A DNA stretch of 64,000 nt from Seison nebaliae. Taxonomy: Eukaryota. Both the position numbers and the translations under genes were made by a program. Location: assembly GCA_023231475.1 (NCBI GenBank), contig JALJEE010001605.1, positions 1 through 64,000 on the forward strand. Direction: 5' to 3'. Within the stretch, counting starts at the first letter, position 1, and every line of letters begins with the position of its first letter. The notes under the pieces were generated by a model. That model was given only the letters and a program-made list of their open reading frames with translations, did not search any database and was not told the DNA's origin. Below are positions 1 through 59,061 of this stretch, piece after piece.

Positions 1-209
1 TAAATATAAATGTCATTTCACATACATCTATTCTGTATATTCTCACATCTTCCCGGATGGTAAGCGAGAACATACTGAATAAATAAACATTTCTCAAAAA
101 TATTTAGAAAATAAATTATTTTGAAGTTGCTGAACTGTACCGTTAGATCATATGAAGACGTAAATATTATAACATATTCATCATCAATATCGCTCTGGAT
201 TAAATACAT
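1..209 (-). CDS. 5' end of a probable WD40-repeat protein (resembles the LST8 N-terminus), running off the window edge
   Basis: ATG at 209. Removing a 61-nt GTT..CAG intron (135-75) gives MYLIQSDIDDEYVIIFTSSYDLTVHMFSL..., which resembles the WD40 'TxSxDxTVxxW/F' signature. Only a short piece is visible. Confidence 0.4.
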
Positions 210-1224
210 TCAATAATTTTAGTAATTAGAGAATTCTATTTTTCTGATAAGTAAATCATTAATTTAATTGCAGACATTTTTTGATTTTTAAATTGAATTG
301 ATTATTTATAATTTCTTATCATCGCCGTGAAATGGTATTGAAGTTGTAGAATTTCTTTATTTTGAAAGAGAATTTTTGTTTAACAACATTTTTTCCTTAA
401 ACTTTCGGAATTGCTTATCATGGTAGTTATATAATCAAATGGATAAGAAAGTAATTGAATTAAAGATATATAATATATCTTCAATCTAGTGAATGAAAAG
501 ATTGTTATAAAGTTATGTCACAGTTATGTCACTTATCAGAGGAAAGCAATTAAATTTTTTATTTATTCACATGTTCGTTCGATGTTACTATCTGTAACAT
601 TAACTTTCTACCTATTCTGTGAAGTTTTACTCATATCCTTTAGAAAGTTCAGGTTCTGATTTTACAATGCAGAAGTTGTAATTTATGATTATCACCTTTA
701 TACCTGGTCGTTATTTAATCGGAATTAATGTATGACATTTGAAATGATAATAATTTACAGAATTTCATTCAAATGGATTTTAGTTTGCCGAAATTTTTCG
801 AAACATTTCCATAATTGTTTAAATATTTTTATGTCATTCCACTTTTCCTTCACTTAACATGGAAACATCATACCCACACGTTTCCATTTCCCTTCTGGGA
901 AGAATGTATATGGGAAAATGTTTTCCGAAATTCTCGTCAAACCTTAGATTGGTGAAGGTCGGAAATTTCTGGTCAAGAATGATTATTTTATGCATGATGT
1001 TTCCTATATGTCCATCGTCGAATTTAATGTAATTCAAGAAATCCTCCCCAAATTTCTTCTTCAATTTATTATTTTAACTCTCGAATATTCATTGATATAT
1101 CATTTTTCTTCTTAATTTTTCACTAGAGAATTTTAAAGTCCATATTTGAAATTTAATAGTTTTCCTAATTGAAATTTTAAGAGAGTTGTAAGAACCAAAA
1201 GTTTCTGGATAAAAGAATGAAAAG

Positions 1225-4200
1225 ATGAAAATTTTGATAGTTTTATTTCTGCTCTTACCATTATTGTTAGGAGATACTGAAAACTCAACTGATCCTAATT
1301 CAACTGGGAATGAATATAATGAAACTTCCGATTATCCGCCATTTCTCAATTTAACCTCAACCAATTTGTATTCATTCAATGAATCTAATACTAACGAGTC
1401 ACTATCTACCGTCTCTGAAGTTGCAATTTCCGCAAGAATTGAAGATTCATCAACATTACTGAATCAGTTAACTTCGGATTCAATCACGAACGAAATTCCT
1501 TCTCCAACGGACGACATAATAACTAATGATATTGTCGATTATTTGAACTCTACCTTTACAAAAGGACTTGAAGAAACGTTAGTTATTTTTGAATTAAATA
1601 AATTAAAAATGATCATTGTTCAAATATTAGGACGGAGAATTATCTAAATTCGACGACAATTGAAAATGTGACAATTATTGAACAGTCGACTAGTTCTGAT
1701 GAATCTATTTTACCTTGTAACACCAGTATTGTTACGGAAGAAGTGAACGAACAAAATACGACATCCAATTTTTCATCATCGACAATTTCATCTAACACAA
1801 ATATTATTGATTTATTAAATTCTACTACTGTTGATTATAGTAATTTTACTTTGTCAATAGACAACAGTTCACTTATTATCAATGAAACATCGACGACTGA
1901 ATATTCTTTAATTTTATCAAATTCAACAGCAACAAATAATGACTTAATAGAATTTACCGACACATATGTTCCATCAACAGATAATACAACTGAAATAATA
2001 ACATATTTTACTTCGAACAATGATTCTGAAACGCATAGTTCTGCTTCGTCGGAATTTGTTGACAATTCAACAGAAATTTATAACCAAACTACTTATGAAT
2101 TACTGTATACGGTTAATAGCACATCAATGATCACTGATTTTGATATGAATACCACGGATTTATTATTAACAGATTCTTTGAATATTTCAACTCAAACGCC
2201 AAAATATATGTCCACAAAATTATTAACAGAAAACTTCACAGAAAACTTCACAGAACAGATAACGCCAGAATCCCTATTAAATTCCACGATTATCCCAACT
2301 TTATTCTCTTTGGAACAAACAACAAATGAATCAACTATACAACCAATAAAAGACACAACGGGACCATCTGCAGTAACAGAATTATCGACAGAAGAGTCCA
2401 CTGTAAAATCAAACGAAACATCAGAAAAATCATCAACAGACGGTGTAGTAGAACCATTGACAGAAACATCAAGACAAAGTTATGGAGAATCATCGACACA
2501 ACAATCGACACTTCAATCTAGTGACGAGTCTACAGAAGATTTTTCTTCAATTACATTATCTTCTACTGATGTAATGACGGAATCATCAATGGTGAATTAT
2601 ACTGATTCATCGACAAATATTCTCTTTGAATCAACTTCTGAAAATTCTACTGATGTATCAATGACTGATTTATCAGTTCATTCAACCGAAAACTTAAGCA
2701 CAGAATTTATGTCACCAACTGTTGAAGATCAAAGTTTAACTACTGTTGAAAGTACAGTTGAAGGATTAATTACGAACACTCTCCAATATACTGAAGATTC
2801 AAATGAGACGATTGCTTCTGATAAACCCCAATTTACTTCAATGTCAACAGAAGTTGCCTCAACATTTGCATCTAATAAGGAATCAACAACCGAAATATTT
2901 GATAGTTCACCGTATGTAACGAGTAGCGAACAAAATACCAGCGATTTTGAATATCAATTTTCTGAATCAACGGTTACTGACGAAATATCTTCAACAATGA
3001 TAACATCTACAACTACCACAACAACCACCACTATGACCACAACAACTACCACCACAACAACTACAACAACCACCACTACAACTACAACAACCACTACAAC
3101 TACAACAACCACCACGACAACGACAACCACCACGACAACGACAACCACGACAACTACAACTACCACGACAACGACAACCACCACGACAACGACAACCACT
3201 ACGACAACGACAACCACAACAACCACCACTACCACAACCACATCGCCCATAGTGCGTAAGGTGATAATGAATTTAAATTTTATACTGAATGAAAAGTTGT
3301 CAGTATGTCAACAATCGCGAAAATCTTTTGAAAAGTTCATATCTGTTGCATTTGCCACCAATAACAGAATATCAGAATCTGTACTTCAACATCAGTTGTT
3401 TCCTTGCAAGTTCCATTTCGATATTACTTATTAGACTATATTTCTTTTTCTTTTCTCAGGTTTTATGAGAATGGACAAAAGTTAGATTTTTTTCCACGAT
3501 AACTTATTCATATATTAGGTCGATGCAATTGTTAGGAGTTCATATCGATGCTACGAAATATGAGAATAGACGATTGAGAAGAGATACAACAAATTCGGGA
3601 AACGATTTGAAGAATATTATAAATGAATTTTCAAAGGACGTTTCTTCTTCAATCACCGTCCTAATAGAGAAAGCCAATGACGGTGACAAATCTAATGAAG
3701 AAATTTTTCCAATTTTGAAACAAGTTGGCCAAAAAGAATTTTTTGTAACTGGTTATTCATTCATATTTCTCCCAGTTAAGTTTATCATAATTTAACTAAT
3801 TTGTAGAGGCTTTACAATTCACGGAGAAACGAAGTGAAATATTAGATGAATTCACATCGGATACAATTAAAGAAATGACGACGTCACAGAGTGACTATGT
3901 AGAAATTGGGCCAGCAGAAAGAATTAAATTTCCAGCAATCGAATTAGATATCGAAGAGAATAAAAAGAAATATTTGACATTGCTAGAAATTATTGGGGGT
4001 TCATTTTACCCTGTTTTTTTCCATTTAAAAAAAAATTATTTTTATTAACTAGTCGTATTAGGAGTGACTTTTGGAGTTACATTAATCATACTTATATTCT
4101 TCGGTTTTCATCGACAGTTATTATTCTTTTTCTTTCTCTCTTAATTTTTTTTGTGATAGTCGAAAAAATCGTCAAGATAATATGTTTCCAGATCCGACAA

Positions 4201-7107: not shown

Positions 7108-7134
7108 TTCTCATTTATAATTAGTTTTGTTTTA

Positions 7135-7195
7135 TTCAAAATATTTTTTTTTCAAAATATTTTTTTTCAAAATATTTTTTTTTCAAAATATTTTT
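7135..7195. repeat. Tandem repeat, about 4 copies of CAAAATAT(T)n, each containing the palindrome AAAATATTTT
   Basis: Seen directly in the short spacer between the AFG2 stop and GAPVD1. Confidence 0.9.
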
Positions 7196-7290: not shown

Positions 7291-10200
7291 ATGTATGATC
7301 GAGATATAATCACAAATATATTTCATTTAGCGAAAGCGTTGAAACAAGAGAATGAACATGTCAGTTCGGAGAAGAATAATCTGATAAATTATCATACGAA
7401 ATGTGTGAGGAATGCACATAAATTATACCAAAAATTATGGATCTCAGTGCAACAATCGCGATTGATTACTAATTTGTCGAATGAAACGTTAACTAATCAA
7501 GAGTTTTCGAAGGAGATCGAACGATTAGATCAGACCAATTTCCAGGAATCATTTCAATCCGATTTCCTCACTCTTTTCGACAAGATCAATGAATTGAGAA
7601 AGAATATTAATGTTCTCGTCCAATTTCTTTTAGTAATTGATGAAGATGAATTTGATATGAAATCCAAAAGATTAATCATCGATACGATATTTATCGGATT
7701 TTATGGTTGTGCATTATTAGTTGATGACGAGAAAGATTATATTAAATTTCTGAAAGAATTACTTCTTAACGAAATTATTCCGAAAGGGAATTTAAGAGAA
7801 ATCTTAAATAAATCGACAGGAAATCAAGTGACATATTTCTATTTAGCTTTTCGTCATTATTCGAAAACGACAATGGCTACCAGATTGTTCTTGTCCAATT
7901 CTCTCAATCTACCCATTCTAACGATAATGAAAGAAGATCATTTTCGATTCACTAAACAATTAATCAATGTGAATGAGAAAATTACAAGTAAATTAGTTGA
8001 ATTCATCAAAATGTTTATCAAATCCATCAACGATAGTTCACCGACATTTCCTAATGGAATGAAATGTTTATTACGACAAGTTATTATATTATAATTTAAA
8101 TTTCTTTTAAATTTCTTTAAAAAGATTTATAAAGAATTGACACGACAAGGTAAATTGTCGAAAGAAACGATTATGCATATTATCGTTGATTTGTTGATGG
8201 GACAATACATTTGTCGAGCACTCAACAAACCAGAACAAATGGGAATATCACATGGAATGCCATTGACGGAGAATGCGAAGAATAATTTATTTGTCATTTC
8301 TAATTTTCTTCGAACATTATGTGTCTGTACGGACGATATGTTACATACAATGGAACCACAATCCATTTATAAACATTTCATCCAAAATAATCTCCTTCCA
8401 AATTTCATTGAGAAACTTCTTGAATCGAATGATGGAAATGAATTAATTTTTAATGATAAATCTGATCTCTATTCCAATGACACGTCATTCCAACGGAATT
8501 ATATGATATTCAATTTTTCCGAATTACAAGAATTTGTTTAATTTTTATTTATTTATTTATTTATTCTTTCTTTCTGATCAGACAAAATTATTAAAAATCA
8601 TCAATGAAAAATTGAATAAGAATCACGTCACCACATCAAAGAAGGAGGAACATTTGATTCTGTTAGATATTCTACCGTCTAATGAAAACGATCAATCTCG
8701 AACAACGTCCAATGGAAATCAATCGGAAGATTTATTAAAGAAATTCCAACGAATTATTCCACCAACTCATTTGAATAAATTGATCGAAACATTTCTCAAT
8801 GACAAAAACGACACAAGTTCTCTTTATAAATTTCTTCAGAATTTTTATAAATTAGAGAATTGAAAGATTGTGAGATGACATTTATGGTGAAGATTTCATC
8901 ATCCAATGAAGAGAATCCACCAGGTCTCATCAATGAGGAGAAGATTCTTAATGAATCATCGGAATTCTTGACAAATATCAATTTGAAAGGTAGAAATTTT
9001 TTTAAAAATTTTTCTCATAAACATTTGCTATTCTTGATCTTTGTTTACGATTAATATTCCTTCAATTTTTCTTATTCCAATTCGATTTCTAAAAATACAA
9101 TGATTCTGATAGTTGATGATGATGACGACGATAATATTTGTCATCAATTGAGAAATATTTCATTTATTCCTATAACTTATTATAAATATTTGCTACAATG
9201 GAATTCCAATCAACAGAAACATCAACGAATCTGCCAATACTTGAAAATGAATCCATTCCGAAAGAATTATGATATTGGGAAAGATGTGTATAATTCAGAT
9301 ATGGGTTCAATGAAACCAGATATTGGAACTCCACGATCAGTTTCTTTCTCTACAAATGTCTCTCGATTGAATGATAGAAATAGTGACATTTCTTCCACTC
9401 ATTCATTTCGTGTTTCATCTAAATCACAAAAAAAAAATATATTATCTGATGATAAATTATTTACCATTGGAAATGGTCATCATCAATCGAATTTTAATGA
9501 ATCGAATGATTATAAAAGAAATGAAATGAGTGAAAATCTATCGACTAATCAAAAAACATTTAGTAGTGATGGTAATAGTAGTAGTTCTTATGGATCGAAT
9601 GGAGATGAATTTATGTCACCTCACAGTTCAATTATAGAATTTGGTGAAGCCGCATTTAGTGATGCAGCGTCATTATGTGCTGAACAAATTCCATTAAGTC
9701 GAACACCAACTCAACGATCGAAAACGACGGAAGATGAGATTGATGAGAAATTCAAATTATTCATTCCACATTCAAGTTCTTAATTCAAATATTTTTTATA
9801 TAATTTATTTATTTTCTTTTCAAATTATTTTTCTTATATTTAATATTTATTTGATGTGCTATTATTTATTTGATTTGATGATTATTTGAAATTGATGATT
9901 TTAAAATTGACGAAAAATTAATTTTAATTCAAATAATTAAATTTAGATATAAATATTATGGAGAATGGGAAATCGTTAATTGATAATGAGAGATGGAGTA
10001 TTGACTCTCAATATACTAATAAGAAGTCTCAGAATGTCGGTGAAGTGGAGGAGAAGGATAAGAATGACAAATTACCAACAATGAGTACTAACACCAGTTT
10101 CCTCTCGAACATTTCAAGAAGAAGTGGCGAATTCATGAATACACCAGCACTCAATAATTCGTTTATTAATAAGATCAATAAAGATCTGTTGGAGAAACCA

Positions 10201-11821
10201 CCAGGAAAGATCATCGATCATTTAAAGGAGAAATTTAATCAAACTCTTAATAAACATCGTTTCACGAAAACACATGTTCTACCGCAATTCGTCAATGTCA
10301 ATGATAAGTTGATTGGAGAAGTTACGACGGAAAAACAATTCTCCAAATCCACTTCATCCACCGCCATATTGGATGGAAATCATTCAATTACCGAAGTATC
10401 TGCCATTTTAGCGAAATATTCAGATGAAAAAAAGAAGAAACGATCGAACAATATCGATGATAAAGGAATGAATAGTAATCGAAAAAAGAACGAGAGAATA
10501 TCGAAGAGAAATACAGATTTACTTTTAGATTTGAATGATTCGAATGAATCTGATACGAACGATGGTGAGCAGAATGATAACGATCAGAATGAATTAGATA
10601 TCGATCTCTCAATCGATCATTATTTTGCGAATTTAAAAAAGAAAATTCGAAAAATATTTTCTACAATTCCATTGACTGATATGTCGTCGGTGAAGAATAC
10701 GATCCAAAATATTTTCGATTTGAAATTTTTCGAACCGTCGTCGTCCATATGTTATCGTCATTTATTCAATGGAATTATAGACACGTTATTAAGTGATTGC
10801 ATTTCGATTAATGATCGAGATTCCATCGTTCTCTTACATGAAACAAAACGAATATTTCAATTATTTTATCAAAAATTACATTTTGACAATGAAGAGATTG
10901 AGAAGAATTGTGGGAAATTATTAGAAGAATTATGGAGAGATTATGAGAATCGTTTCATTTATATCACTTATCTCTCCATTGAAAAGAGTCGTTTGTTGTC
11001 GATTACGAATATGATTGATAATTTGTTGAATCATGTATTGGTTCAATTGAAATGGAATATGTCATTCGCTTATCATGAATTAGCGAGACAATTCATTCAA
11101 AAAAATGAAAATTGTTTCATTAATGATTTGGAGAAGTTCCGCAATACAAATATTGATGATGATAAATCGGAAATCATTCAAAGGACTTTACAACAACTTT
11201 ATGCTGAATTGAAGAAGAATATCGAATGGAGACAAACGACGAACGAACAACAACAATTATTAGAAGACGCTATTGAACGACAATTTATGTCGAAGATTTA
11301 TATCGCCGCATTATTTCCTTTAGGGGAAATTAATCAAGAAACAGATATGATATTTTCAGATAATTTGAAAATATTAAAAAAAAACATTTCTCCATCACAT
11401 CCATTAATCGACATTCCTAAACAATATCATGGTGAAGCGCCATGGTTGGCAGCATCGATGGAATTATCTTTTCTCTCCGCTTATAAGACACCAAGTAATA
11501 AATTGAGTTGTATCGAATCATGTGCTAATACCATCCTTCATCTACTCACCATATCAACATCATCGAGTAAAGGTGCTGATGATTGTCTGCCAATTCTGGT
11601 GTATATAATTGTCATGACGAATCCGGAAAATGTTATTTCTACAATTCGGTTAAATTTTTATATAATAAAATTCTTAAGACTTAATAACCTTCAATAATTT
11701 CTTTAGATATATCGATACATATTATGGTAATCGAATGAATGGTGAGAAAGCGTATTGGTGGATTTTATTCAAGAGTGCCATCGAGTATATTCGAGGAACA
11801 TTAATAGCAAAAATCAAATAA
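7291..11821 (+). CDS. GAPVD1: GTPase-activating protein and VPS9 domain-containing protein 1 (GAPVD1/RME-6)
   Basis: N-terminal LAKALKQE..VSSEK motif, RasGAP-like region and C-terminal VPS9 domain (AYKTPSNKL, GADDCLPILVY, GEKAYWW). Introns 8080-8124, 8536-8581, 8817-~8857, 8990-9112, 9776-9946 and 11649-11706; stop TAA at 11819-11821. The exact start codon is uncertain. Confidence 0.88.
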
Positions 11822-12246: not shown

Positions 12247-13054
12247 ATGACAGACAAATCATCGATCAATTATCGAATGTGTAATGTTCGAATTAATCAA
12301 TTAACGGAATTGAAAGAATCGGCATTTGTTCGTCCATATTCTGTCGACTATGAGCAGGATGGAAAGAAAAAGAAATGGGATCTCATTCAAACTCATGAAA
12401 GTGTGGCAGTTCTCATTTATAACAGTGATAATGATACTCTCGTTCTGGTTAAGCAATTCCGTCCAGCTGTCTTTATGACCAGTTGTCTAAAGAATTTGAA
12501 GTTGGATAATGTTGTTGAAATGACAGGTAAATTAGAGCAGATAAATAAAGAAGAGAAAGAAAGTTTCTTATATTATTAACAAATAAAATTATTAACGACT
12601 TTTCATATCATTAGCTAATGGATGTACCATCGAAGCTTGTGCTGGTTTGGTTGATAAAAAGAAACCGCTAATTGAAATTGTTCAAGAGGAGATTGAAGAA
12701 GAATGTGGATATCATGTACCTTTAGCTAATATTAATTTCATAACAACTTATCGGTTACTGTCTTTTATTTAATAAAAATTTAAATTTAAATTATTTCTTT
12801 ATAGTTCTGGTGTTGGAACGGGTGGATCGATGCAACACTTCTATTATGTGGAAGTGAAGAATTCCATGAAAATTGGACGTGGTGGCGGAGTGGAACAAGA
12901 TGGAGAATTAATCGAAGTCGTCGAGTTTCCAATTTCAACTGTTTATCACGATGTTGTAATGAGTGAGAAAATAGCGAGACCACCAAGTTTATTATTTGGC
13001 ATTTTATGGTTCTTGCACAATGCGGAAAAATATCGAAGAAATTTAAAGAAATAA
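12247..13054 (+). CDS. NUDT14: Nudix hydrolase, UDP-glucose pyrophosphatase-like
   Basis: KKWD..HESVAVL and LVKQFRPAV motifs. The middle exon 12615-12753, absent from the ORF track, encodes the Nudix box IEACAGLVDK...EEIEEECGY. Introns 12563-12614 and 12754-12804; RSGVG motif spans the second junction. Confidence 0.92.
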
Positions 13055-13178: not shown

Positions 13179-14464
13179 TTATTTGATGAAAGTTTTTTTG
13201 AAGAAATTTTCGTCATAATCTGTCAATTTCACTTTTCTTCTTTTCGTATTATAATTATATCGTCCACGACGTGGATCAGTAAACTGACTACTACAATCAT
13301 CATCGGATGTCCGATCTTCTAAGTTGAAAGAGATTTTTGAAGTGGATTGGATCGATTGTGTTTTCACCAGATGCTTTTCCGGTGGACAATTAACGATAGA
13401 TGTTGATTGACTGAGTGGCACTTTAAATATTGGTTTATTCTGCTTGTAACTTCTCTTTGATTGACTTAGTAATGGTTGTTGACTACCGGTAGAAAGAGGT
13501 CGTGAATTAATAGTTTTGATAGACGATGATCTTTCCACATTTTTCTTTTGAGAATTAGAAAATTTCTTACAAAGTAGTCCAGTTAGAAGACTTGTGATGA
13601 TAATAAATAAAAGACCGAGAATAATTATTATAGAAAGTAAGATTATATTAAGACGACAATAATATTGTGTAGCTGCATTAATTTTCGTGATATTATTTGC
13701 GACAAAGAAGATTTTGATACATTGAATAATGTTTAGTAATTTCATCGATTCCGAATTATCTTCTGTCGATGTGGAAAGATTCATAAAGATATTTAATGTA
13801 GAAGTTGTACTTGTAGTACTAATTGTAGTAGTGGTTGTGGAAATTGATGTGGTTGTTGTTATTTTGGTGGTGGTGGTGATAGTGGTTATACTTGAAGTGA
13901 TATTAATGAGAATTGTTGAAGATTCTTCTTGATCGATCCAAATATCTTGTTCGACTTGATGCATTTGTGCATTGTTCACTAACAACACACAATCACAATG
14001 CCAAATTTTGTGATTCTTGTGATTTGTTTGATCAACGATATGTAACTTGAAATATTATCTGTTTTTGAATGGATGAATGAAATTTTAATAAAATAAACCT
14101 CAAACAAATGCCAATCGGGACCAAAACCACCACCATCATTATTCAATTCGATGGCACGTAAAGTACCGATAGGAGTTTTCGTGTCGATTTGTAACTCATC
14201 GAATTTATTTCGATCAAATAAAGCTCCAGCACCTGATATTGTTATCGATCTGGAACCAGAGTCACCATAGAAAGTAAAAGTTATCGATGCATCGCTACCA
14301 GCACTATTATCGGAACCAGTGAGGACTTTAATTAAATATATTTCACAGGAACTATCAAGAATATCTATTGGAATGAAATTATATTCTAAATATTTTTAAA
14401 AGAAGAATCGATAACTTATCACCATAATTATCATTTGAATTAGACGAAAATAAATTTTAGCCAT
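13179..14464 (-). CDS. PLAT/LH2-domain single-pass membrane protein with a Thr-rich stalk
   Basis: ATG 14464; introns 14415-14365 and 14098-14046. Exon 2 reads YLIKVLTGSDNSAGSDASITFTFYGDSG...FDRNKFDEL...IGTLRAIELNNDGGGFGPDWHL, the PLAT consensus. It is followed by a T-rich stalk, a TM helix (IILLSIIIILGLLFIIITSLLTGLL) and a Ser/Lys-rich tail. Confidence 0.85.
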
Positions 14465-16037: not shown

Positions 16038-19000
16038 TCACGTACAATAAATGATCTTACTTGTATCATCGTTCGCTTTCTTATGTATGCGCTTCTGAAC
16101 ATAACTCCATACAGAATTGGAAACTGTCGAATTCTTTCTATTTTCTTCTTCACATTCCTTTTTATCAACATTCTTCTCGTTGTTGTTATTCGCCATTGGA
16201 ACGGCAAAACGACCGGCTAATACTGAATTAATAAGAGCCATTTCTGTGTCTTCATCTTGACGTTCGCGTAGACCACCTGTTGCCAAAGTGCAGCTACCAT
16301 ATTGATTATTCGCATCATCAGCCATCATTTTATTTGATTCATCCAAATGCTTCATGAGAACAGCTACCACAACATTAACTAATACGAATTGTGCCATTAG
16401 TACGAAAACCAAGAAAAAGATCAGACTCACAATGCGATTTGCACAGCAATTATTCTCACATGTCGCACTATCATCACAACCTTCACGTCGTAAGGCATCC
16501 TGGAAAAAAATTTATGAAATATTAATTTATTTTAACCGAAATTCTATTCGACTAACTTTCATAATACTATTCCAATTGTCACCGGTGGCTATACGGAATA
16601 GAGTTAGGAAGGCCATACCGAAATCTTTGAAGTTCGCATGTTTATCTAATCCCACACATGGATATACAGGATTACCACAATGTAATTTCCCAAATAATTC
16701 AACTCCCAAAGCGGCGAAGATAAAGAATAGAAGGAAAAATAAAAGTCCCAGATTTCCTACTTGAGGTAGCGCTTGAATAACTGTATCTAATAGTGCTCGG
16801 ATACCTTTGGCCATTTTGAGCAATTTTAAAACTGAAATAATTAAGTTTAAAAAAAAATATATAGAATCATATATAATTTTATAAAATTAACCGCGTGCTA
16901 TTCTTAATACTCTCATTATTCGAATGATTGTTGGGTTAATAGGAATATGTAATTTTGTACTTCCCGAATTAATCTGTTCAAGAATAATACCACCAATGGA
17001 CAAAAGGACAATCATCATATCCAATTGATTCCATCTAAAACATTTTTTTAAATTAATTTTCCTAATATTTTTAAAATGTTAACCGATCAGATAAATAATT
17101 TGATAGTCCAAGTGCGACCAATTTCATTAACAATTCGATGATGAAAACTGCGGTAAAAAAGTAGTTGAAGATATTGAGGATACTTTCTAATTCGTTTGAC
17201 ATTCGATAATATTCCAATGACATTGTTACTACATTCAATCCAATTACACCAGCGATAACTAAATCCAAATATTTTGAGGCACAAATTTTATATAATTTCA
17301 ATCTCCATTTCGAATAATGGACCCAAAACGGAGCTTCTCTCATTTCTGATTGAGTTGAGAAAATTATTGAAGAAACTATTTTAACAAATAATTCGAAAAT
17401 AACTTAATCTCTTAATTTCCAACTTCCTTGCTCTCTTAGCGGCACGTTTAGCTCTCTCCTGTTTCTCTTGTTCCTCTCGACACTTATGGAAATTCTCCAC
17501 CACAACACCAACGAACATATTCAGAACAAAGAACGCCACCAGTAATATGAATGAGATGAAATAAATTATCATAAAAGTATTATAGTTCTCTTTCGGTTGC
17601 AAGTCGACACCACGAGCATCAATTCCATGATACATGATTTGAACCCATCCGTCTTTGGAACTCAGCACAAAAAGAGACATTAAAGCCTAATAATATTCGA
17701 ATCGATTTTAATTAATTTTAAGAAGAATTTTAAAAAAGGTTTAACTTGTCCTAAATCATCGAAATTATATCTGTGATTGATCCATCGATATCTCGTATTA
17801 TTATTTGCAATGTCAAAACAATCGTTCTTTGTATCTACATTCCATATCATTGGTCCACCTTCACAATGGTAAAATTTCCCTTTGAATAATTGAACTCCAA
17901 GAATACCAAATATTAGATAGAATGTTCCACTAATCAATACGATATTACTAATCGGTTTCAATGATGTTAACAATGTTTGAACGACTAATTTGAGTCCAGG
18001 TGCTCGACTTATAACTCTCAAGGGACGAAGTGTTCGTAATAATCGGAAAACTCGGAGCATGTGCAATATTCGATTGTTGTTGCCACTCAACATAGTCAGA
18101 ACGATATCAACGAGAGAAATAGTTACAAGTAATCCATCCATGAAATTCCATCCGTTTCGGAAATAAGCATCCTTATTCAAGAAGAGTCCTTGAGCTATAA
18201 CTTTTATTGCCATTTCCACAGCGAAGATAAACGTAAAAATATAATTGGTCACATTTAAAAATTCACGTTCTATACTTTGTCTGGGTATACCCGGTCGTTC
18301 CATTGCCAACGTTATACAATTTAATGCGATGAACAATAATATTGTGTAGTCGAACCATTTGATCGAGAGTAGAACTTTACAAAGATAAACCAAATAATTA
18401 TTGGGAGATAAGAGAAATAATGAATAATTTTGTCTTTCATTATAAATCGTTTTAATTCGTTGGAAAATTTTATATTTGTTACCTGAAGTTATTGATGGTG
18501 TTTTTGGTTTCAATTCATCCGAATTCGATTTCTTCAATTCATCGAAATTTGATTTCTTCAATTCATCCACTTCATTCGAAAGATATTCGTTATTCAATGA
18601 ACAATCTTTTGAATATTCTTTTCCTACGTTTAATGGAACATCTTCTTGCTCGTCATTTTCATCGATAATACTATTTTGCAATGAGGAACCTTGGAAGTCA
18701 TTTGTCAAATATTTTGATGATTGATCTCCGAGAAATCCCTGACTCGAACTACATTGACTGGTAGGCGAATAATCGGAAGTATTCTTCTTAATAATCGAAC
18801 TTGAGCAATCGTCGATATCTTCGTCATTCATAGGAGCAATTGGTGCGATGGCTGATTGAGATGTATCAAATAACATTGTCATATTTGAATTAAACAACAG
18901 TCCATTATGTTTCTCCAATTGATCCCATTTCGTTATCATACTCATCAATTGGACAGATGTCTTTTGTTTCGATCTTCTTCGACTACTTCCTCCATAACGA

Positions 19001-22000
19001 CGAGAACTGTTTATTAATGATTGCCGACGAAAATCTTTCAGTTTTTGATGAGAATCCATCAGTGACGGAAATTTTAATAAACTGGATAAACTGAGACATT
19101 TAAAATTTTCCGCTTGCATCTTTGCGAAATATTCAATTCGTTTCTTATTTTTCTCCTTCTGACTATTATTCTCCTCTAAATATTTTGTTCCTTCTAAATT
19201 GTCATGAGAAATTTTCGGTTTCGGAAATTTGATTGTCATATTATTTGGCAGGGCTAAACTACTACTGCGTTGTTTCTTCTGCAAAAGGAAACTATTCTCT
19301 TTATCAGTTTTCCCATTGATTTTCGAAGTTTTTTTCGGACTAATAAGAATTGATGTCTTGTTCGATAATCGACCAATATCTTCCTCTTCATCTGGTGGAT
19401 AATATGCTGGCATCTTCTGATTAGATGTAATTGAAATATCGTCATTAACTGACGTTATATCTGATTTATCATCACCCTAAAATAAGAAAAAATTTCAAAT
19501 AATTTCAAAATTCCAATTTAATAAATAAAACAAAACATGTTCACTGAATCCTTCAACCAAAATAGCAACCAATAAATTGAAGAGAACATAATTCCCAAAT
19601 GTCATAAGAGCAATGAAATAGATTGATGCCCAGGCTGAGGTTCGATTCATCCCATCATACAATACTTCATTCCAATCTTCTTGAGTTAATACTTGGAAGA
19701 CTGTAATGATGGCCCATAATAAAGAATCAAAATTTTTCCGAGAACATTTCCGTTTTCCATCCGCACGAATATTACAGAATTTACAACCAAACAAATGCAT
19801 ACCTAATATACTGAAAATGAAAATGAATAAGATGAGTAGAGCGAAGAATGTCGCCACATTATCCATCGTTCTCAGCATGATGATAAATTGCCGTTTAAGC
19901 GCTGGAAGAAATCGAACCAATTTTAAAATTCTCATTAATCGAAATGTTCGTAAAACTGAAACGCCACTCGTTTCCAAATCACTTTGAATTTTTTTAAATA
20001 TCTCATAAATACTAATGATAACAATGGCTCCATCGAATAGATTATATGGATTCTTCAAATATTTAAAAATTCCAAATGCCAATACTTTCAATAACATTTC
20101 TAAGGCGAATAATGCGGTAAAGAAATAATTGCTGACTTCGATAATATTTGTCAAATATTCCGGCTGTTCATGATGTTCGATACCCATCGACAACGAATTA
20201 ATGACGATTGAGATGAGAATGCCTCTAGTGAAGAAACTGGATTCAACGAAATCTTGTAATTTATTTTGAATACATCTCCAAAATCGATTGAAAGCACTAA
20301 ATATTTGTCTGAATTTCATTAGGAATTTCGAGAATAATTTCTTGCAGATATTAGTCGATTGAAATTCAAATTGAACTTGTCGTAATTCTTCCAATGTCAA
20401 GTCGGATGTGAAAATACAAATGAAACATTTCATTCTCATACTCGAATGACAAAAGAGACAATCTTCTAAATCTTCTTGAGACGTACAAGTCTTACAACAT
20501 TTACATTGTCTTTTCAGCGGACTACAATTACAGAATGAACAATTGAGATTCTGGAATTGATTCTTATTCATTTGATCGATAGTATTTGTTATTTCACTCA
20601 GATCGTTCTTGTGATTATTACAATCATTATCATTTCGTTCACTCAATTCATAATTTAATAAATTGGAAGATCTTAAGAGAATATGTGACAATTTGAAACG
20701 TTCCATTGTGGATGTTTGACTATTAATATGTTTGATGACAACATTTCTCATATTCTGAATTGTTTGACGATGTTGACAACAGAATAATGGATAAGCGATA
20801 TCTCTGTCACTCTCCTTCGGAAAGTATTTGATCGATGTAATGAAAAACAATAAATGTCGATGGTCGTCACAACTACCAATATTATATTTGTTTTCGATTG
20901 TCCGATAATGTTTAGCTGTCGACAATCGATGATATTCGAAGAATGATTGAGATTTTTTTGTATGAAAATAAGAAAATCTTTCTTTGAAATTCGTTCGCAT
21001 TAAATTTATTCGAGGAGCCAAATGCGCTTCATATTGTCTTCTTGTCATTCGTCCAACATTCCTCAATAAATGAGCAAAATATTTTATAATTTCTTGATAA
21101 CATGAACCGGGATTTTGATGATCATTCATCGTTGATGTTGAACGAAATCTGGCACGTTCTGCTAACATCCTTTCTGTTTCTCGACGTTTAGTTTCACTGA
21201 ATTGTGTTGCAATTACAACTAAACATAAATTTAACATGAAGAACGCTCCGATGACAATTAATAGAACGAAATAGATCCACACCCAAAATGAATGAGCATC
21301 TTGAATATAATACATGATGTTGACCCAACTCTCCAAACTGATGATTTGGAAGATTGCCACCCATGCTAAACCAATATTGTCAAACGAAACAGAACCACGA
21401 AATGGATTTTTGTCACTTTCTCGACAATCTGAATAAAACTTATTCCAATTGATACAATCCGTTCGTACTATTTTGCTTTCATTCAAATATGATAAATCAG
21501 TGGAAGTTAAATGAGTTGGATCACGATGATATCTCCGCAATCGATTCTTACTATTATTATTCATAATGATTGATGATGGATTCGTCGCATTATATGTCTC
21601 CGATATGGAAATATTGTCGAATTCACTTATTTCTTCAGTCGTCAAATAAGGTGTGGTTGTCGTTTCATAATTTGCAGTTTGAGCAGATTGGACACTTTGC
21701 AATCGAATTGATTCCAATTTCTGTCGCAAATATTCGACAATGGATAAATTATTGATTTTGGAAGATTGTAATGTTCCGTTACAAATTATTTTATTTCCTT
21801 TCTATTGTCATTGAATGATAAGAAATGATGCTGGAGGATGGAAAAAAATGAAGAACCTGTTGAAATGGTGGTATATCCGAACATGTACTCATACCAGCAT
21901 TACCGGATAATGAACAGACGAAATCGGCACCATTTGGTTTATAATAGGACGGCATCATTAATTCACTGAAAGAATTAAGAAAGAATGAAGAGATTGGGAA

Positions 22001-43006: not shown

Positions 43007-44740
43007 ATGAATATTCAAAATTCCATTAAATTAGCAGGAACTGTTCGACATGCTAAATTGCCGAAAATTTCAAAAGATTTATTGAAGAACGATGAGAGGA
43101 AAAACAAATTCGAATTGGAATTGGACGAGAAGAAAGAAAAAGAATTTCAATTGATCGAAGAGAAATATCTTATAGAGAAATCTCATCCGTTGGAAAAGAG
43201 AAAAACTTTTCCTCAACAACTTATGGAACGATATTCCATGGAATCGTTAGTAGAAGATCACAAGAATCGAAGAAATCCCAAATATGGTGGAGAAGTTCCC
43301 GAATTGAAACGACAACGATTCTGGTCTCAACCGTTCAATGTTGATCATTTCAAATCGAAATTTCGAATTCATATCAAAGAAGGAATTGTCAAATCGAACA
43401 AAAATATTCAAAGTCTTCTTCCAGAAGTTCATGGTGAAGTGAAAGCTGCTTATCTTTTATTGAGATTGGGAGCACGAATCAAGACTGGTGGAGTGATAGG
43501 AGAACATTGTAAATCATTGGAATCACATCAACAATGGCCGATATCGATTAAAATAATGAATTGGACGAAATTATATCATAAATTTTTTAAATTTTTCCGA
43601 TATGATTTGGAGAATGAAAAGAATGAAAAGAAGGAAAAAAATGATGATGATGATGATGAATGGATTGATGAGGAACATAAATTACCGAAAACTAGTGTAA
43701 CATCTGAAGAATTCTATATTACTGATATCGAATTAAATGGTTCCGTTATTACGGTTGATTCCATCTCAATTTTTGGTTTATATTTCACTTCCAATAATTT
43801 ACGTCTATCCAAAATAACATTTCACTAAAGATCTTTTCGAATCGTTAAAAAGTTTGACAATTGTCGGTTGTCCTTATGTGACGAACACTTTCCTTCATCG
43901 ATTATCGATGATGTTGAAGGATAAATCAGTCGAATATCTTCAAATCTCCAAATGTGAAAATGTGACAAATAATGGAATGGAATATTTGACTGAGATTAAG
44001 TTATGTTTTTACAACGAATCCTTTTCTGATAACCCTAAAAAAACAGGTCATTAAAGGAGTTGGAATTGTCGAAACAATATCCATTTTGTAAACGAGTCTA
44101 TCCAACTAAACCATATTATTATAGTGATGATTATATGATTAATGAGAATTTCACTAATCTTTCAGCAATTGTTGATAGACAACAATTATTACGATATCGT
44201 AATTGGTATTTGTGGAAATTGGAGGAGAAATTATTACCTCAATTATTGTTGATGAGAATGGAAGAAGAAATGGATGGTTGTTTCATTAACGTTCATGCTC
44301 AAATGGATATTGGACAAAATGAACATTTACAAAAATTATTATCTTTATTTCAAGAATTGAATTATTATCAAATTCCTGAAGTATTCCATATGGACGAGGA
44401 GGAGAATAATAATGATGAAATTTCTCCGATAAATTTCATAAAAAATTTAACTAGTCAAATCGATGAATTAGTCAATTTCAATGAACCGATCGAACAGAAA
44501 TCGGTTAAATATGGCGAATGGAAATCGTGGAAAGAGACAGATGGAACATACGACGAACAAACTCCAATCCATTCGGAGGTACCCGAATCTTATCAAGGAC
44601 AATTATTAACATTGAACTCGACTGATACTAATCAATCCAGTAATGAAATGATCGAATTTTTCAAAGAATATAATCGAATCAAACATCACAACATCTCGAT
44701 GGTGAATAAACGATTGACAGAAAGACTCAACGTCAATTGA
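43007..44740 (+). CDS. Leucine-rich-repeat-like protein resembling the DMAC2/ATP5SL or ATP5S family
   Basis: HGEVKAAYLLLRLGARIK, then ITDIELNGSVIT, LKSLTIVGCPYVTN, LQISKCENVTNNG and LKELEL repeats after removing introns 43776-43830 and 44000-44046. The family call is from memory of the motif layout; the 5' end is uncertain. Confidence 0.55.
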
Positions 44741-44908: not shown

Positions 44909-47900
44909 TTAGATATCCATTACTTTGCATAAATGTCGTAATTGGACAAAAGTGGAATCGCCTCGAATTGATACAAGACCATTTCTTGTTTGTAATGTTT
45001 GCAATTGACCGATATCGTCATGATAACGACTTGTGGAATCGATAATCTTCACCTTGAATAATTTGATGAAAAAAATATGAAATTTAATGAAATTATCAAA
45101 AGATAATTAACTCTATCATTGACTTCAGGTGGATGTGGTATTAATGCACCGATCGGTACGGTAACTACTCGATTCAATGCGAATAATTCGAGTGAACATG
45201 TCGGTCCCTAGAGAGAGAGAGAGAGTAAAATGAAAAAAAATTTAAATATTTATAATAAAAATTATAATAATATTTAAAAACATGAATTCCAGTTACAACA
45301 CCAGTTTTGAATCGAAGTTCTGCATCAACCACATCATTTTCTCCAATGTCGACGACTAAACCTCGAGATACCCAATCATTCCTTGTTGAATTAGTCGCTA
45401 CAAATTAAATAATATTTAAATAATTTAATTGATTTAGAAAAGAAAAAATCTCCTAACCGAAAATTGGAGTCTGAGGAGTATAAGCACTGTTTGATGGACA
45501 AACAGATGGTTGTTGAGTAATGTCATGTGAACTCATATCGTCAGTTGACAAAATACTTCGAGGATTGGAAGGTGAATTATCTTGAGCATAATCAGTCGAT
45601 TCTTCATAATAATCATCTTCAGTAGTGGGATAATTGGGCGTTTTACAAATCATGGGAACAGCTGGTGTACGACAATGCTCATTCCAACTGATATCATCCG
45701 AATCCGGAATAGAAGTAGGTGCAGGTGAAGTGGCACTCGAATTGGACATTGTATCATTAATGACAATTGATTTCTTTGTAATTGGTTGAGAGGAGTCGTG
45801 AGAATTTTGTGCAGTATAATCAGCGAGTGAAACGAATGTTCCATTTTCATGTTCCACTTTCACTTTCTCCACCTCAATCGAAATAGTTGAACATGTTGAA
45901 TGTAATTCCAATTTGACTAATGTCTCTGTTATATCTTTCAGAATTCCCGTATAAGATTTATAAGTTCCACGAATAATTTTTGCTGTTCTACCCAAAAGTG
46001 GATTATTTCTTGGATTAAATCGATTCTTTCTTCCTTGTTGATTATTATTATTATTATTATTATTATTATTTCTTCTTTGATAATTTGAACGATTATTATT
46101 ATTATTATTATTATTAAAACTATTATTATTATTATTACTGTTATTATTATGTGGATTAGGTGATTGTTGACCAATAGCTGGTGATGAACTTCCAGATAAT
46201 GACCAACCATCAGAATTATCTTCATGAATTTGTGGCGATTGCATTAATGAGGGTGATGCCATTCCAAAATTTGTTGTACTATTAAAATTCGAATTATCAT
46301 TTGATGAAGAATATTTATATGAGAAATTGCTGTTATTGTTGTTATTCATTCCAACAGTTGCTCCCATCAATTCCAACATATTCGCTCGACAAACGAACAT
46401 TCCTCCATTGATGGCGATGGTTTTCGTGGAGAGGAAAACATATTTACTTACAATACATTTGACTGTTGCAATTTGTTCTCGAAATTTCCCTTCCACCACT
46501 TTTACTCGATCACCAATCGATATACTCATTTTCTTACAATCCGTCGCTGTTATATATTTATTGATTTTCTTCTTTTTTACTGATATCTTCTGAACACGTC
46601 GAACATGTCCATATTGGTTCAATATTGTAAAATGATCATTCTCTAAACGAATAATTATTCCACAATTCTCTTTATCTATCTCAACAATATCACCATAAGA
46701 GAATTGTCCTGATGAATCGACACCACTTGCTTTCTCATCACATCGTTCAACATCACGTAACAATACGATAATTTCATCTTTACTAATATCTGAATATAAT
46801 ACAACTTCATTACCATCAACTACTGATACTAGACCGGTATCTCCTTTATATTTCCCATTCGTCACTTTGACATGATCTCCTCGATTTATGAATTTCCTCA
46901 ATTCGTGAGGTGGAAAATCGATAGGTTCTGTCAAGTCATTATGAATCGGTTTAATTTGAACACTATCTTTATTAATCGACAATACACGTCCTGTCAAATT
47001 TTTCAAACTCGACGTCAATACTATCACTACATCACCAATGGCGAAATTTGTTTTCTCCGAATTCTTCCTCAAATTCTCCACCGCCTGTTCATCATCTAAT
47101 GCTTGACTTAGACTTTCTCCGAAATTCTCTAATTCTTTCGGTGTTGGAGTGACACCTTGTGTAACGATGATATGTGCACGAAATCGTCGATGAAGGAAAC
47201 CTTTCATATCGAAATTCATACCGTTACAACTATATCCATTATTCGTCTCTTTCACTGTCATTCCATTTTGACGAGCAATATTCATGTCGAACTTTTTAGC
47301 AGATGGACGAGCAACTCGTCTCTTTCGATTAGGAATACCATCTAATTTATTCGTTTTCTTTTTTGTATATTCAAATCGTGGAATCAATTTCAATATGACA
47401 ACATTCTCCGTCTGATCATATGACATCACTTTCGCTAAATCATCTTTATACATCGAACTCTTTAATCGAACCCAAGCATTTTTTCTTATCTCTCCAACCA
47501 CGTCAACTATCTTCATAATATCGATCATCTCTTTCGCTGTCACCATCGACGGTTGTTTATATTTCGCTGCACTTAAACTATTCACATTTTCTATCGCTTG
47601 ATTCACATGTGGTAATTTGAATGCTTCAATATAAATTCTTCCTTTCACATTCGGTTTAGCGATAACTGATTTTATTAATAATTTCTCTCCCGTCGTTTTC
47701 GACAATGTCATGAATTTCTGCATCAATCTCAACACCGTTTCATTCTCACGACCAATTCGACATTGGACAATCCAAATTTTCTCTTTCATCGTTTCATTGG
47801 GCAAATATGAGACTGGATCGATTGATGAATCATTCACTTCTCGAAATACATCAGTTCCCATTGGCGTTTGTGCGTTATATCGATCAGCAAAATATTCATT

Positions 47901-48200: not shown

Positions 48201-48616
48201 CTTCCCCAACTATATAGTCGATTTCTTCAAATTTTCTATGAATTTCTTATAATTTTCACGAATCAAATACGAATAGTTATTTGAGAAAACAAATATAAAA
48301 GCTTATAATTTGAATTATTCAACAATATTTTACATTAAAACCAATTACTTTTTAACCATTTCAAAATTTTAAAAATTCTCTTTTTCAATTTCCTTTCCTC
48401 TCCATTTCAAATTATATACCCACTAACTCTATCAAAACAACAACAAAAATATCAAAACTTTAATTTTCGTATGATCAGCAATTTTTGGAAGAAGTATAAC
48501 ACAGTCATCATCTTCCCATTATCTGTTTTCATCATCATTGGAATCGATTACCGTCGATCATTGAAATACAAAGAAGAGCAACTCAAGAAAAAAAAGTTAA
48601 TTTTACTTAATTAACA

Positions 48617-48854
48617 ATGGATCCAGTTGTCCGAGTTCCGGTTAGTAATTTAAATTGTTTTTAATTTTTTTTATACTTCCTATTAATAGTTCAGTTATCG
48701 TTTGAAATATTGGAGGAATCATTGGTTTGCACCTGTGGCTGTTGTAGCAATCGGTTCGTACATATATTACTGTGGAAAGAATGAGTTGCTACATTATAAT
48801 CGGTACAAAAATAAAAGTCATTTATATGGCGGTCATAAAGAGCCCGTGTATTGA
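48617..48854 (+). CDS. NDUFB1: NADH dehydrogenase (complex I) subunit NDUFB1/MNLL-like, 62 aa
   Basis: Exons 48617-48640 and 48690-48854 give MDPVVRVPFSYRLKYWRNHWFAPVAVVAIGSYIYYCGKNELLHYNRYKNKSHLYGGHKEPVY. The RxHW, TM segment and F/YxNKSxL pattern matches NDUFB1. Not in the ORF track. Confidence 0.75.
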
Positions 48855-55400: not shown

Positions 55401-57178
55401 GTGAATGTGATCAAATCTTTTTCGACTTCGTGTTCTCTTCCTTCAATTTCTCACCATTTTGATGAAGAATCTTTTATTTTTACGTTTTTTTGTTATTTTT
55501 TTTAATTTTAATATATTATTATTTGTTACATCAAAGAATTTATTCAAAAAAACTATCTGAAAACTATTCGAATTCAGAATTTATTTGAAATAAAATTTAT
55601 AGAAATTCCATTCAATTTACATTACTTCTCTTAATATAACTTTTCTTAAGCATACGATATACATAATAAATTACTTTTAAATCAATAACAATCCACTTGT
55701 AATTCAGTTGTTTCTTTAAAACTCTTTGAAAGAAAGTTAAATTGTTTAAGAGAGTGTTTCTCAATCGAATCAGAATAAAATGAAAAGTTCATTTATTTTA
55801 CAATTCATTCAATTATAAAATATTTGTTTATTTTTTCCATAATTCCAAATAGAAGAATTGTTGGGAGTTCGTTTTAATTAACTTTAAAAGACTTAAAACA
55901 GCTAGACACAGTGTTTATGAAATCAATAGAGAATTAATACGAATCAGTTGCAGTAGAGATGATATATGGGTAATGTTTAATCGAAGAGAATTAAATTTTA
56001 ATTATACATATCATCGTCATGGGTATTATTAGATTTGGTCGTTATTTCAGGAAGTGAAATAGAATAGTAGGAATGAATGGGAAAAGTGTTTCGCTTCATC
56101 TCCAATACTTTTTTTGCCTTTCATGCAAGCAATGCGATAAGAATGACCTTTTAGTGAGACGTGAAAAAGGAAAATAGTGTTATTCATTCGTTTAATTTAA
56201 CCGTCTCCCAAATCTTTACGAAATATCGAAGGATAGAGAAATGACGATATTTTCGTTTACACTTAATCGGTCATCTACTTTTAAAGTGCTCGCAAAAGTT
56301 TGAGAAAAGGTAATTGTTTATGAATGAATCATGTTCTTCATCGAAACGATTAAAAAGAATTTCCATTAGAATTTTCCCCATGATCCATTTGAAATCATAG
56401 AAGAGATCATGATCACCATCATCAAGAAAAACAAGAAATTTTTGTTGACGTTTTCATACCGTTGTCATGGGAATTATGATGAAAATAAATTTTTTTTCTA
56501 TATTACTTTCTGTCTGATAAATGAATGTATGATAGAAAATAGGGAAACAGGAGAAGACAAAACGAAGTGATACATAGCTCGTGGAAACATTGGATTACAC
56601 ATACACGCACATATCGGAGTGAATATTAATTTTTTGTTTGTAAGAATTTCTTCCATTTCCTTATGAGGACGAAGTACGGTGAAAGAATTAATAAATTTCT
56701 TTTAAAGCGGAATTCTTGTTTGTTCATTAGAAAGAGAGAGTCCCGAATTTCAAACAGGTTTCGACCCTTCCACCAATTTGATTGTTCATCTGTTAAGTGA
56801 ACGATACTAAAACGATTTGTGTCGAAATTGGATGAAGATTTTACGAAAAACCAAATCGAATTGATTTCTTTTCCAAACATCTCATTCTTCATACATATTT
56901 TTTTGAAGTCTGCTTAATTCAATGTTTCTTTCATTATTTCATTGAAGTAATTTATCCTTGTAGAAGGATTGCTTTATAAATCTTACAACAGAAGAAAAAC
57001 AATAAGTTTAGTCTTTTGTCTAAAGGAAATAATATGTGTGTCGAAATTCATACTATCCTAATCTAATTCAACTAGTCGCCTTTCATTCGCTTTTGATAAA
57101 AAGTAAACTTGAATTATTGCCTCTAACTGAGATTTCATTATTCTTCAACAATCTTTCTTTTTTCAGATGTACTAGAAA

Positions 57179-59061
57179 ATGGAAAAATACGAGGTCCTAA
57201 GACCAAACGTCGGTGAAGGTTCTTATGGAATTGTATCTCATGCAATTAATAAAGTTTTCTCTTATCATTAAAATTCATTTATTTGAATTTCATCTATCTG
57301 TTATTAATAAATTGATAATAAAACAAATGAAAGGAAACTCGAGAAGAAGTTGCAATAAAACATTTTAAGAATGTAGATCAAAGTTCAAAATTTTCTTCTT
57401 ATTTTTATTCTTCCTATCGTAAAATGAATTTGTAGTGGAGAATGCTCAATTGAGGAAAGCTGCAGTTAAAGAATTGAGAATTTTAAGAATCCTTCACCAC
57501 AAAACGAGTCATACTAATACAAACAGCAAATCTTATTGCAATAGCCAATTACGTCATTTTCATGACGCATCTCAATTGAGTCATGAGAATATCATTAAAT
57601 TCATAGAAGCGTTCCGTTGTGCAAAACAACAAACATTTTCAATAGTCTTCGAATTTTGTCCTCATACATTATTACGACTCATTTCCAAGAATAAAAACGG
57701 TTTACAATGGAAAGATGTTCATTCGATTTGTTTACAAATCTGTAAAGCAGTTCAATGGTGCCATAATCATTCCATTCTTCATAGAGGTTGATTTTTATTT
57801 TATTAATCTTAAAAATAATTTGAATTTAAATTGTAGATATTAAACCGGAAAATATATTACTTAATCAAAATAATGTGGTTAAGTTGTGTGATTTCGGTTA
57901 AAATATTTTTCTTTATAATTAATTCACTAAATTTGTAGGTTTTGCCAGACAAGTCTATCGAGGAAGTTCGAATGATTTGAATAATAAAGACCATCCACAT
58001 ACTCATTATGTGGCTACCAGATGGTATCGTGCACCAGAACTATTATTAAATGCTCCTTATTCATTTCCGGTAGACATTTGGAGTATTGGTTGCATTCTCG
58101 CTGAAATGTCCAATGGAGAACCGTTGTTCAAAGGTGAGTCGGATATCGATCAAATATATAAGATTCAATGTAGAATTGGCAATTTCCCTCATTCACTAAC
58201 TCAACATTTTAATAATTCATCGAAATTCAAAAAATTGATGGTTCGTATTTAATAATTAATATTTGTATTTATTTTTTAATATTTTCAAAATTTTTTTAAA
58301 AAAAGTTTCCCACAGTAACAGAACCTGGTGAATCATTAAGAAATGCTTATCACGATAGATTAACGGTGGAGAAGAATAATGAACTTTTTTATTTTCTGGA
58401 GAAATTATTGCAACTTAATCCGAAAGATCGTCTGATGATTGTCGACTGTGTGTCGAAATTGAATGACATTTATTTCAATGTTTTCACATCCAAAAAAGTG
58501 GGTTTGTTACCAAAAGGTAATAAAGATGGTCGTCGTCATAGTTCAACATTCTTCCAGTTGAAATTGCCGACGAAGCGAAATAATTTCACATTAAATTCTG
58601 GAAAAGTTTCAACATTTCCATTAATAGACTATGTGGACAGTACATCCAATTTCCGTCATTTAATGTTAAGATTGAATTTGAAACATCAACAAGAATTGGA
58701 AGAATTGAATAAGACAACAGTGGAAGTGAAACCATCAGTGAATCATCAGAAATTGGAGACGCTAAAAGAAAAAATCATTCTTCCACCCACCAAATTGACA
58801 CATTTACCAAAGAAGAAATATAGTGCGAAAACGAACAAAAATTCAATTCATCTCAAATCGAAATTGACGAAATCTTCGAAACTGGCAAATGATAAGAACA
58901 ATAGTCAAAGTAAACGTGTTACGAGATATCGTCGTTATAAAAGTTCAACCACAACATCATTATCCACCATAACATCAACAACAAAAACGTCGAATGCAAC
59001 ATCATCATCAACAACGATTGATACACCAGGTACAACGATATTTAAAAAGAAAATTAATTGA
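57179..59061 (+). CDS. Cyclin-dependent kinase-like kinase (CDKL5-like)
   Basis: [47 protein letters not shown] and GESDIDQ motifs. Introns 57254-57333, 57383-57435, 57787-57836, 57897-57938 and 58241-58305. Confidence 0.9.

Follow-up and report, generated by a model that had tools for sequence, protein, structure and literature searches.

Near-universal GTT 5′ splice sites in a contig of the seisonid Seison nebaliae, a candidate single-position change in an animal splice code

The locus

The stretch of DNA considered here, referred to as the window, comprises 64,000 nt (positions 1 to 64,000 of contig JALJEE010001605.1) of the genome of Seison nebaliae, a member of Seisonidea (Rotifera/Syndermata) whose host is the crustacean Nebalia and from which about one third of the metazoan BUSCO genes are missing, according to the accessible text of the genome report (PMC8351084). 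The window is gene-dense, with 30% GC, and contains, among others, genes for a GAPVD1-like protein (RasGAP and VPS9 domains), a NUDT14 homolog, the channel CaV3, SPT5 and a CDKL-like kinase, whose introns begin almost invariably with GTT, the feature under study. The long exon of SPT5 is 100% identical to the S. nebaliae protein SNEBB_005046, the next matches of the protein search reaching only 31-41%, and the GAPVD1-like protein finds a full match in a deposited S. nebaliae protein; the search with CaV3 returned no S. nebaliae protein.

Intron reconstruction and donor usage

The 39 introns, distributed over 11 genes, are gene models rebuilt from the DNA sequence alone. Every frame-compatible GT-AG or GC-AG pair was enumerated, and for 38 junctions the pairs were scored by coding and intron composition and by length, with donor positions +1 to +6 left unscored; the 39th intron was added later. 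Stops or frame shifts force 38 of the 39 introns, the exception (33835-33888) sitting in an open frame. Termini are GT...AG in 39/39, as drawn from an enumeration restricted to GT/GC-AG pairs, and the donor is GTT in 38 and GTA in one. The introns are listed below with their strand, the last three exon and first six intron nucleotides (separated by a slash) and the last three intron nucleotides.

75..135, minus, ACA/GTTCAG..CAG: gene extends past the window edge; low confidence
1578..1630, plus, AAC/GTTAGT..TAG: putative mucin-like membrane protein, a label given in the absence of a Pfam match
3410..3459, plus, CAA/GTTCCA..CAG: mucin-like gene; low confidence
3481..3518, plus, AAA/GTTAGA..TAG: 38 nt, preceded by a 21-nt exon; low confidence
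3752..3806, plus, CTG/GTTATT..TAG: mucin-like gene
3999..4052, plus, GGG/GTTCAT..TAG: mucin-like gene
4104..4159, plus, TCG/GTTTTC..TAG: alternative donor at 4117, likewise GTT
8080..8124, plus, CAA/GTTATT..AAG: GAPVD1-like gene (RasGAP and VPS9)
8536..8581, plus, TTT/GTTTAA..CAG: GAPVD1-like gene
8817..8866, plus, CAA/GTTCTC..AAG: GAPVD1-like gene; acceptor at 8857 possible too
8990..9112, plus, AAG/GTAGAA..TAG: sole GTA intron, 123 nt, canonical AAG exon end
9776..9946, plus, CAA/GTTCTT..TAG: GAPVD1-like gene, 171 nt
11649..11706, plus, TCG/GTTAAA..TAG: within the VPS9 domain
12563..12614, plus, AAA/GTTTCT..TAG: NUDT14 homolog
12754..12804, plus, TCG/GTTACT..TAG: NUDT14 homolog, at TY-R/SGVG
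14046..14098, minus, GAG/GTTTAT..AAG: PLAT-domain gene
14365..14415, minus, TAA/GTTATC..TAG: PLAT-domain gene
16500..16556, minus, AAA/GTTAGT..CAG: CaV3 (MK/DAL)
16832..16891, minus, GCG/GTTAAT..CAG: CaV3 (R/VLK)
17035..17083, minus, TCG/GTTAAC..TAG: CaV3 (DR/WN); TAG/GTTAAT in a second, diverged copy
17346..17403, minus, TAA/GTTATT..CAG: CaV3
17687..17745, minus, CAA/GTTAAA..TAG: CaV3 (LGQ/AL)
19477..19536, minus, CAT/GTTTTG..TAG: CaV3
21802..21856, minus, CAG/GTTCTT..TAG: CaV3
21966..22017, minus, CCG/GTTTCT..CAG: CaV3
33835..33888, minus, AAA/GTTCTT..AAG: optional, in-frame; low confidence
33988..34046, minus, AGT/GTTAGT..TAG: presumably a C2-NT-like gene; an overlapping GTG 2 bases upstream would break the frame
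34157..34212, minus, ATT/GTTTAA..CAG: same gene as 33988..34046
43776..43830, plus, TTG/GTTTAT..AAG: gene with a weak LRR match
44000..44046, plus, TAA/GTTATG..CAG: same gene as 43776..43830
45053..45111, minus, AGA/GTTAAT..AAG: SPT5
45208..45281, minus, CAT/GTTTTT..TAG: SPT5
45398..45457, minus, TCG/GTTAGG..TAG: SPT5
48641..48689, plus, CCG/GTTAGT..TAG: small gene, which we take to be NDUFB1-like
57254..57333, plus, AAA/GTTTTC..AAG: kinase, probably CDKL-like
57383..57435, plus, AAA/GTTCAA..TAG: CDKL-like kinase
57787..57836, plus, GAG/GTTGAT..TAG: CDKL-like kinase (HR/D)
57897..57938, plus, TCG/GTTAAA..TAG: CDKL-like kinase (DF/G)
58241..58305, plus, ATG/GTTCGT..AAG: CDKL-like kinase

The initial annotation had counted 36 GTT donors in 37 introns, and the independent reconstruction (38/39 in 11 genes) bears this out; the 11 donors quoted there all agree in coordinates and strand, and the single exception named, GTAGAA at 8990, is the sole GTA both in the reconstruction and in the deposited gene models. 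The donor-blind scoring gave a summed GTT posterior of 35.7 over 38 junctions. Profiles of non-Seison homologs placed a GTT donor on top in 16/16 junctions (eight of CaV3, three of SPT5, five of the kinase), ahead of the best non-GTT alternative by 2.9-62.6 bits, and the NUDT14 exons flanking the 12754 junction match neighbouring residues in the solved human protein, in line with the earlier statement that donors are pinned by conserved motifs. Even when GTT was penalised by its prior, a gene finder run over the whole window recovered 33/39 donors, and three deposited S. nebaliae proteins, themselves gene models, gave 15 junctions when mapped back, 14 of them GTT together with the GTA at 8990. 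As far as gene models allow, the GTT-donor observation in the window thus holds as real and strong.

Two candidate non-GTT donors were noted, GTAAGG at 3256 (3256-3331) in the mucin-like gene and GTGAAT at about 23596 on the minus strand (about 23490-23700), upstream of the first long CaV3 exon. With both added the count becomes 38/41 (95% interval 0.80-0.98), and without the four weak introns (75-135, 3410-3459, 3481-3518 and 33835-33888) it becomes 34/35. Other candidates were set aside: additional non-GTT calls of the gene finder (e.g. at 7027, 11785, 48848, 44928 and 63094) overlap known genes in antisense, fall at gene ends or lie outside any gene; a minus-strand intron at about 37120-37165 falls in a region occupied by a 59-codon plus-strand open reading frame (ORF); and a GTT..AG junction at 7706-7756 in the deposited GAPVD1-like model, left uncounted, lies in an open frame and is probably a spurious call by a gene predictor whose training included GTT donors. 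U12-type (minor) donors carry a conserved, extended ATCCTT after GT, and an assignment to this class was rejected, positions +4 to +8 being variable and +3 being T.

Base composition and anatomy of the donor signal

The initial annotation had assumed that AT richness would favour A as much as T at +3. This is incorrect for the window, where GT is followed by T in 40.7% and by A in 21.6% of cases, T reaching 37% in coding sequence and 18/28 (64%) in intron bodies; the conclusion on +3T nevertheless survives the proper background, since 38/39 exceeds even the intron-body value (Fisher p=4e-4). The introns are mostly 42-65 nt long, with bodies of 51% T, 34% A and 5% G, and the free donor positions +7 and +8 carry 49-59% T. 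Beyond GT, +3T holds the bulk of the donor information. Positions +4 to +6, described earlier as varying freely, do not: G is enriched at +5 (7/39, or 18%, vs about 1.8 expected, p=0.002) and T is depleted at +4 (10/39 vs about 20, p=0.001), and it is from +6 to +8 that the donors stand at background (+6T 21/39). On the exon side, -1G is enriched (17 vs 7.4 expected by phase), and exons end in AA in 14 cases (5.4 expected), in CG in nine (1.4 expected) and in AG in only four, -2A and -1G seldom occurring together; five of the CG ends are phase-2 sites fitting arginine codons, of which CGN is favoured in this genome. Acceptors are TAG in 22, CAG in nine and AAG in eight, and no branch-point motif or polypyrimidine tract stood above background in the 39 introns. 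The GTA intron at 8990-9112, one of the two longest, follows an exon end that is fully canonical (AAG), as though +3 purines were tolerated only where pairing on the exon side is strong.

Because the excess of -1G and +5G sits in the normal register and +4T is scarce, the donor has changed at one position (+3R to +3U) within the ordinary register, and not by a register shift. Shifted-register (+1) GUUAAGU donors were reportedly described by Roca and Krainer; these begin with GTT as in Seison, but need A at +5, G at +6 and a shifted exon side, which are absent here. A +1-shifted register gives 67 matches at +4 to +8 against 61 expected, with G at +6 in 4/39 and a CA exon end in 1/39, and was rejected, as were a bulge register and an extended Entamoeba-like motif on donor composition.

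Comparison with other animals and with a second CaV3 copy

For comparison, 80 channel-gene loci were taken from metagenomes, of which only loci sharing 52% or more identity with CaV3 were used, with a junction finder blind to the donor. The score filters retained 168 of the 182 junctions examined, five from the window and 163 from 35 other loci, several of which are near-duplicates and a few of whose short calls are probably false. The window CaV3 gave GTT in 5/5, and the control loci gave GTA in 113, GTG in 23, GTT in 18, GTC in five and GC in four; a purine stands at +3 in 140/163 control junctions vs 1/39 window introns. The 11 control loci with at most 34% GC have a GT+T background of 38% and mostly similar intron lengths, and use GTT in 4/59 and GTA in 47/59. 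The highest GTT share among control loci with at least three junctions is 2/5. At the LGQ/AL position, where Seison has CAA/GTT, seven control loci have GTA or GTG, and four AT-rich control loci have CAA/GTA. The +3T rule is therefore supported as real and as going beyond base composition, because the CaV3 introns of other animals, AT-rich and compact ones included, use GTA or GTG. The contacts at -2A, -1G and +5G (124, 133 and 94 of the 163 control junctions, respectively) are weaker in Seison than in the control animals, so that the earlier claim of a +3R/+5G code replaced by a +3T code stands as regards +3, while +5G is weakened and not gone.

In the tree, four AT-rich loci adjoin Seison with weak support (ultrafast bootstrap 64) and use GTT in 2/24; a guess would be that they are bdelloid rotifers, in which case the switch would not be common to all Syndermata. 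Five loci have an AT-rich, compact CaV3 whose introns mostly measure about 50-60 nt and begin with GTA in the ordinary way. One GAG/GTTAGA intron is common to three of the five loci, which are likely to be rotifer relatives as a group.

Reads matched at 80% likeness revealed a second, low-depth copy of CaV3, about 84% identical over 17008-17584. Contigs built from the reads contained no exon-exon joins, and a run supposed to be RNA had the character of DNA. Among the differences listed, 19 of 24 in exons fall at third codon positions, a pattern as would be expected of a working ortholog, and the 49-nt intron 17035-17083 has 12 substitutions and several gaps, none of them at +1 to +5. The copy would fit the other of the two lineages reported within S. 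nebaliae.

Intron distribution and other features of the window

The density of introns is about one per kb of coding sequence (38 introns in 37.7 kb and 17 genes). Large conserved genes, namely importin-beta-like (37605-41243), strawberry notch (49821-55400), an AAA ATPase (4585-7107) and most of SPT5 (45457-48200), have no introns or almost none, vs the clusters of small introns in other genes, which suggests heavy and uneven intron loss. The CDKL-like kinase has, compared with its homologs, an insertion of about 28 residues (57490-57575) between helix C and the following strand. Two small single-exon ORFs on the plus strand (36959-37138 and 48472-48614) encode hydrophobic stretches without a meaningful Pfam match and are possibly diverged mitochondrial membrane subunits.

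Possible mechanism

Since +3T exceeds every local background, +3U is probably under selection and read by something, and the poor separation of Seison donors from nearby GTs by canonical U1 leads to the same view: the area under the curve (AUC) for true donors against decoys is 0.66 by pair count and 0.61 by duplex energy, a better canonical-U1 competitor lies within -30 to +20 of 10/39 donors, and the mean number of Watson-Crick pairs is 4.8 vs 6.7 in the control animals. The initial annotation had invoked a variant U1 or U6 or altered protein contacts, which is a reasonable inference. The reading preferred here, with a probability of roughly 45%, is that the major spliceosome of S. nebaliae actively reads +3U, most likely through a U1 5′ end with ACUAAC (A6) instead of ACUUAC. 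Position 6 of U1 faces donor +3, and an A there would let Watson-Crick pairing run unbroken over G+1, U+2 and U+3, a core which, together with short intron length and low G content, could be enough to mark donors and would remain sufficient after the weakening of the -2A, -1G and +5G contacts; the depletion of +4T would agree with a U6 ACAGAGA box still carrying N6-methyladenosine (m6A). ACUAAC is favoured because it needs a single substitution, would not disturb the remaining register signals and has a parallel in Entamoeba, the only lineage studied in which +3U is near-fixed, where the corresponding U1 base is A and the U6 motif is normal. Slightly more tentative is the wider proposal that seisonids may be the first animals with a genome-wide swap of the +3 purine for U, through a compensatory change in a U1 5′ end that is held to be invariant, at thousands of old intron positions where GTA is retained in other animals.

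Several points weigh against this reading. The A6 variant raises the AUC to 0.80 and the mean to 5.7 pairs, but this gain is built in by +3T itself and carries no weight as support; in number of pairs, an Entamoeba-type U1 does equally well. An Rfam search of the window at two thresholds found no small nuclear RNA (snRNA), hence no Seison U1 or U6 sequence there. According to the accessible text of an Entamoeba preprint (10.1101/2022.06.08.495308), most lineages with shifted donors keep ACUUAC, the shifts being mainly at +4, and in that of a study on Fritillaria (PMC13326754) the U1 5′ end and the U6 ACAGAGA are canonical despite mostly non-canonical introns. The GTT kept at the 17083 donor of the second CaV3 copy, amid 12 substituted positions of that intron, speaks for the reading but is one site only, and the introns are gene models built from DNA. 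The last point, with the restriction to GT/GC-AG pairs and the two non-GTT candidates (3256 and about 23596), is also what speaks for a reconstruction artefact with true junctions at other, non-GTT or non-GT donors; given that the 16 profile-scored junctions and that of NUDT14 sit exactly at conserved motifs and that the calls survive the anti-GTT prior, such an artefact is very improbable. Drift would likewise supply much of the +3T bias, GT being followed by T in 41% of cases window-wide and already in 64% in intron bodies, and a loss of +3 constraint filled by mutation bias, with no new reader, would agree with the weaker -2A, -1G and +5G; nonetheless, the difference between donors and intron bodies, the lower T content of the free +7 and +8 positions and the retention of GTA in AT-rich control loci of similar background make this explanation improbable.

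Other readers of +3U can be envisaged. Changed contacts of U1C, LUC7, SNRNP27K or PRP8, or snRNA modifications, might favour +3U with canonical snRNA sequences, as in Fritillaria, where the splice code has changed through protein paralogs and snRNA m6A patterns with an unchanged U1 5′ end (PMC13326754, in its accessible part); the +3 preference is shifted in C. elegans snrp-27 mutants, as given in the accessible part of PMC11732430, and the loss of BUSCO genes mentioned above (PMC8351084) points the same way. This is rather unlikely, as a clean swap at one position with the other U1-register signals intact would be explained more simply by one base change. A readout on the U6 side, in which the ACAGAGA base facing +3 (human G44) has become A, or in which a G44 wobble with +3U has become decisive as U1 pairing weakened, could build on the weak interaction of G44 with the usual A or G at +3 (PMC11732430) and on the better pairing that GUUUGU could have with U6 ACAGA (10.1101/2022.06.08.495308). 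Stronger U6 pairing should, however, raise +4U, +5G and +6U, when in fact +4T is depleted, +5G is at 18% and +6T is at background, and the U6 motif is kept in Entamoeba and in Fritillaria, so this must be regarded as unlikely.

Few RNA-RNA contacts in animals are as conserved as that of U1 with the 5′ splice site, and the compensatory U1 changes on record are those of amoebozoans. Where +3 is swapped almost throughout in an animal that retains many introns, one may ask how a single letter of the code came to be replaced at thousands of positions with no lethal stage in between, and with two diverged S. nebaliae lineages and likely relatives on GTA the order of events is testable. Genomes of this kind may, in addition, be mis-annotated by gene finders that have learned the standard animal donors.

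Relation to known systems

The initial annotation knew of no GTT-type consensus in an animal, and in the literature search GTT donors turned up neither for Seison nor for any other animal, with subscription papers and bioRxiv supplements outside its coverage; this is apparently an unreported splice-code shift in an animal. The accessible text of the S. nebaliae genome paper (PMC8351084) gave no splice-site statement under snRNA, intron or splic, and its supplements no match; no rotifer donor logo appeared in the accessible parts of PMC10125929, PMC3464624, PMC10639083, PMC3033335, PMC10597677 and PMC1557818.

The closest likeness is with Entamoeba, which has near-fixed +3U in GT-AG introns, U1 ACAAAC and a conserved U6 ACAGA motif, and is likewise an AT-rich, host-associated lineage (10.1101/2022.06.08.495308, accessible text). 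Entamoeba differs in being intron-poor and in having +3 to +7 fixed (GUUUGU in about 88%), whereas in Seison, an animal with about one intron per kb of coding sequence, only +3 is fixed, +4U is avoided and +5G is weak. The Seison donors therefore fall outside the Entamoeba-type class, being alike at +3 and failing in the features of +4 to +6, with a U1 sequence that is predicted only. Fritillaria borealis shares with Seison an animal background and a rewritten 5′ splice-site code read by the major spliceosome, but it abandons GT/AG and keeps the U1 5′ end and the U6 box, while Seison keeps GT-AG and swaps one position (PMC13326754, accessible text). With regard to the two classes of animal donors, NN/GURAG and AG/GUNNN, as set out in the accessible part of PMC11732430, the -1G, +5G and +4U avoidance of Seison fit the same U1/U5/U6 register; nevertheless, GURAG occurs in 0/39 and the AG exon end in 4/39, so that most Seison donors belong to neither animal class.

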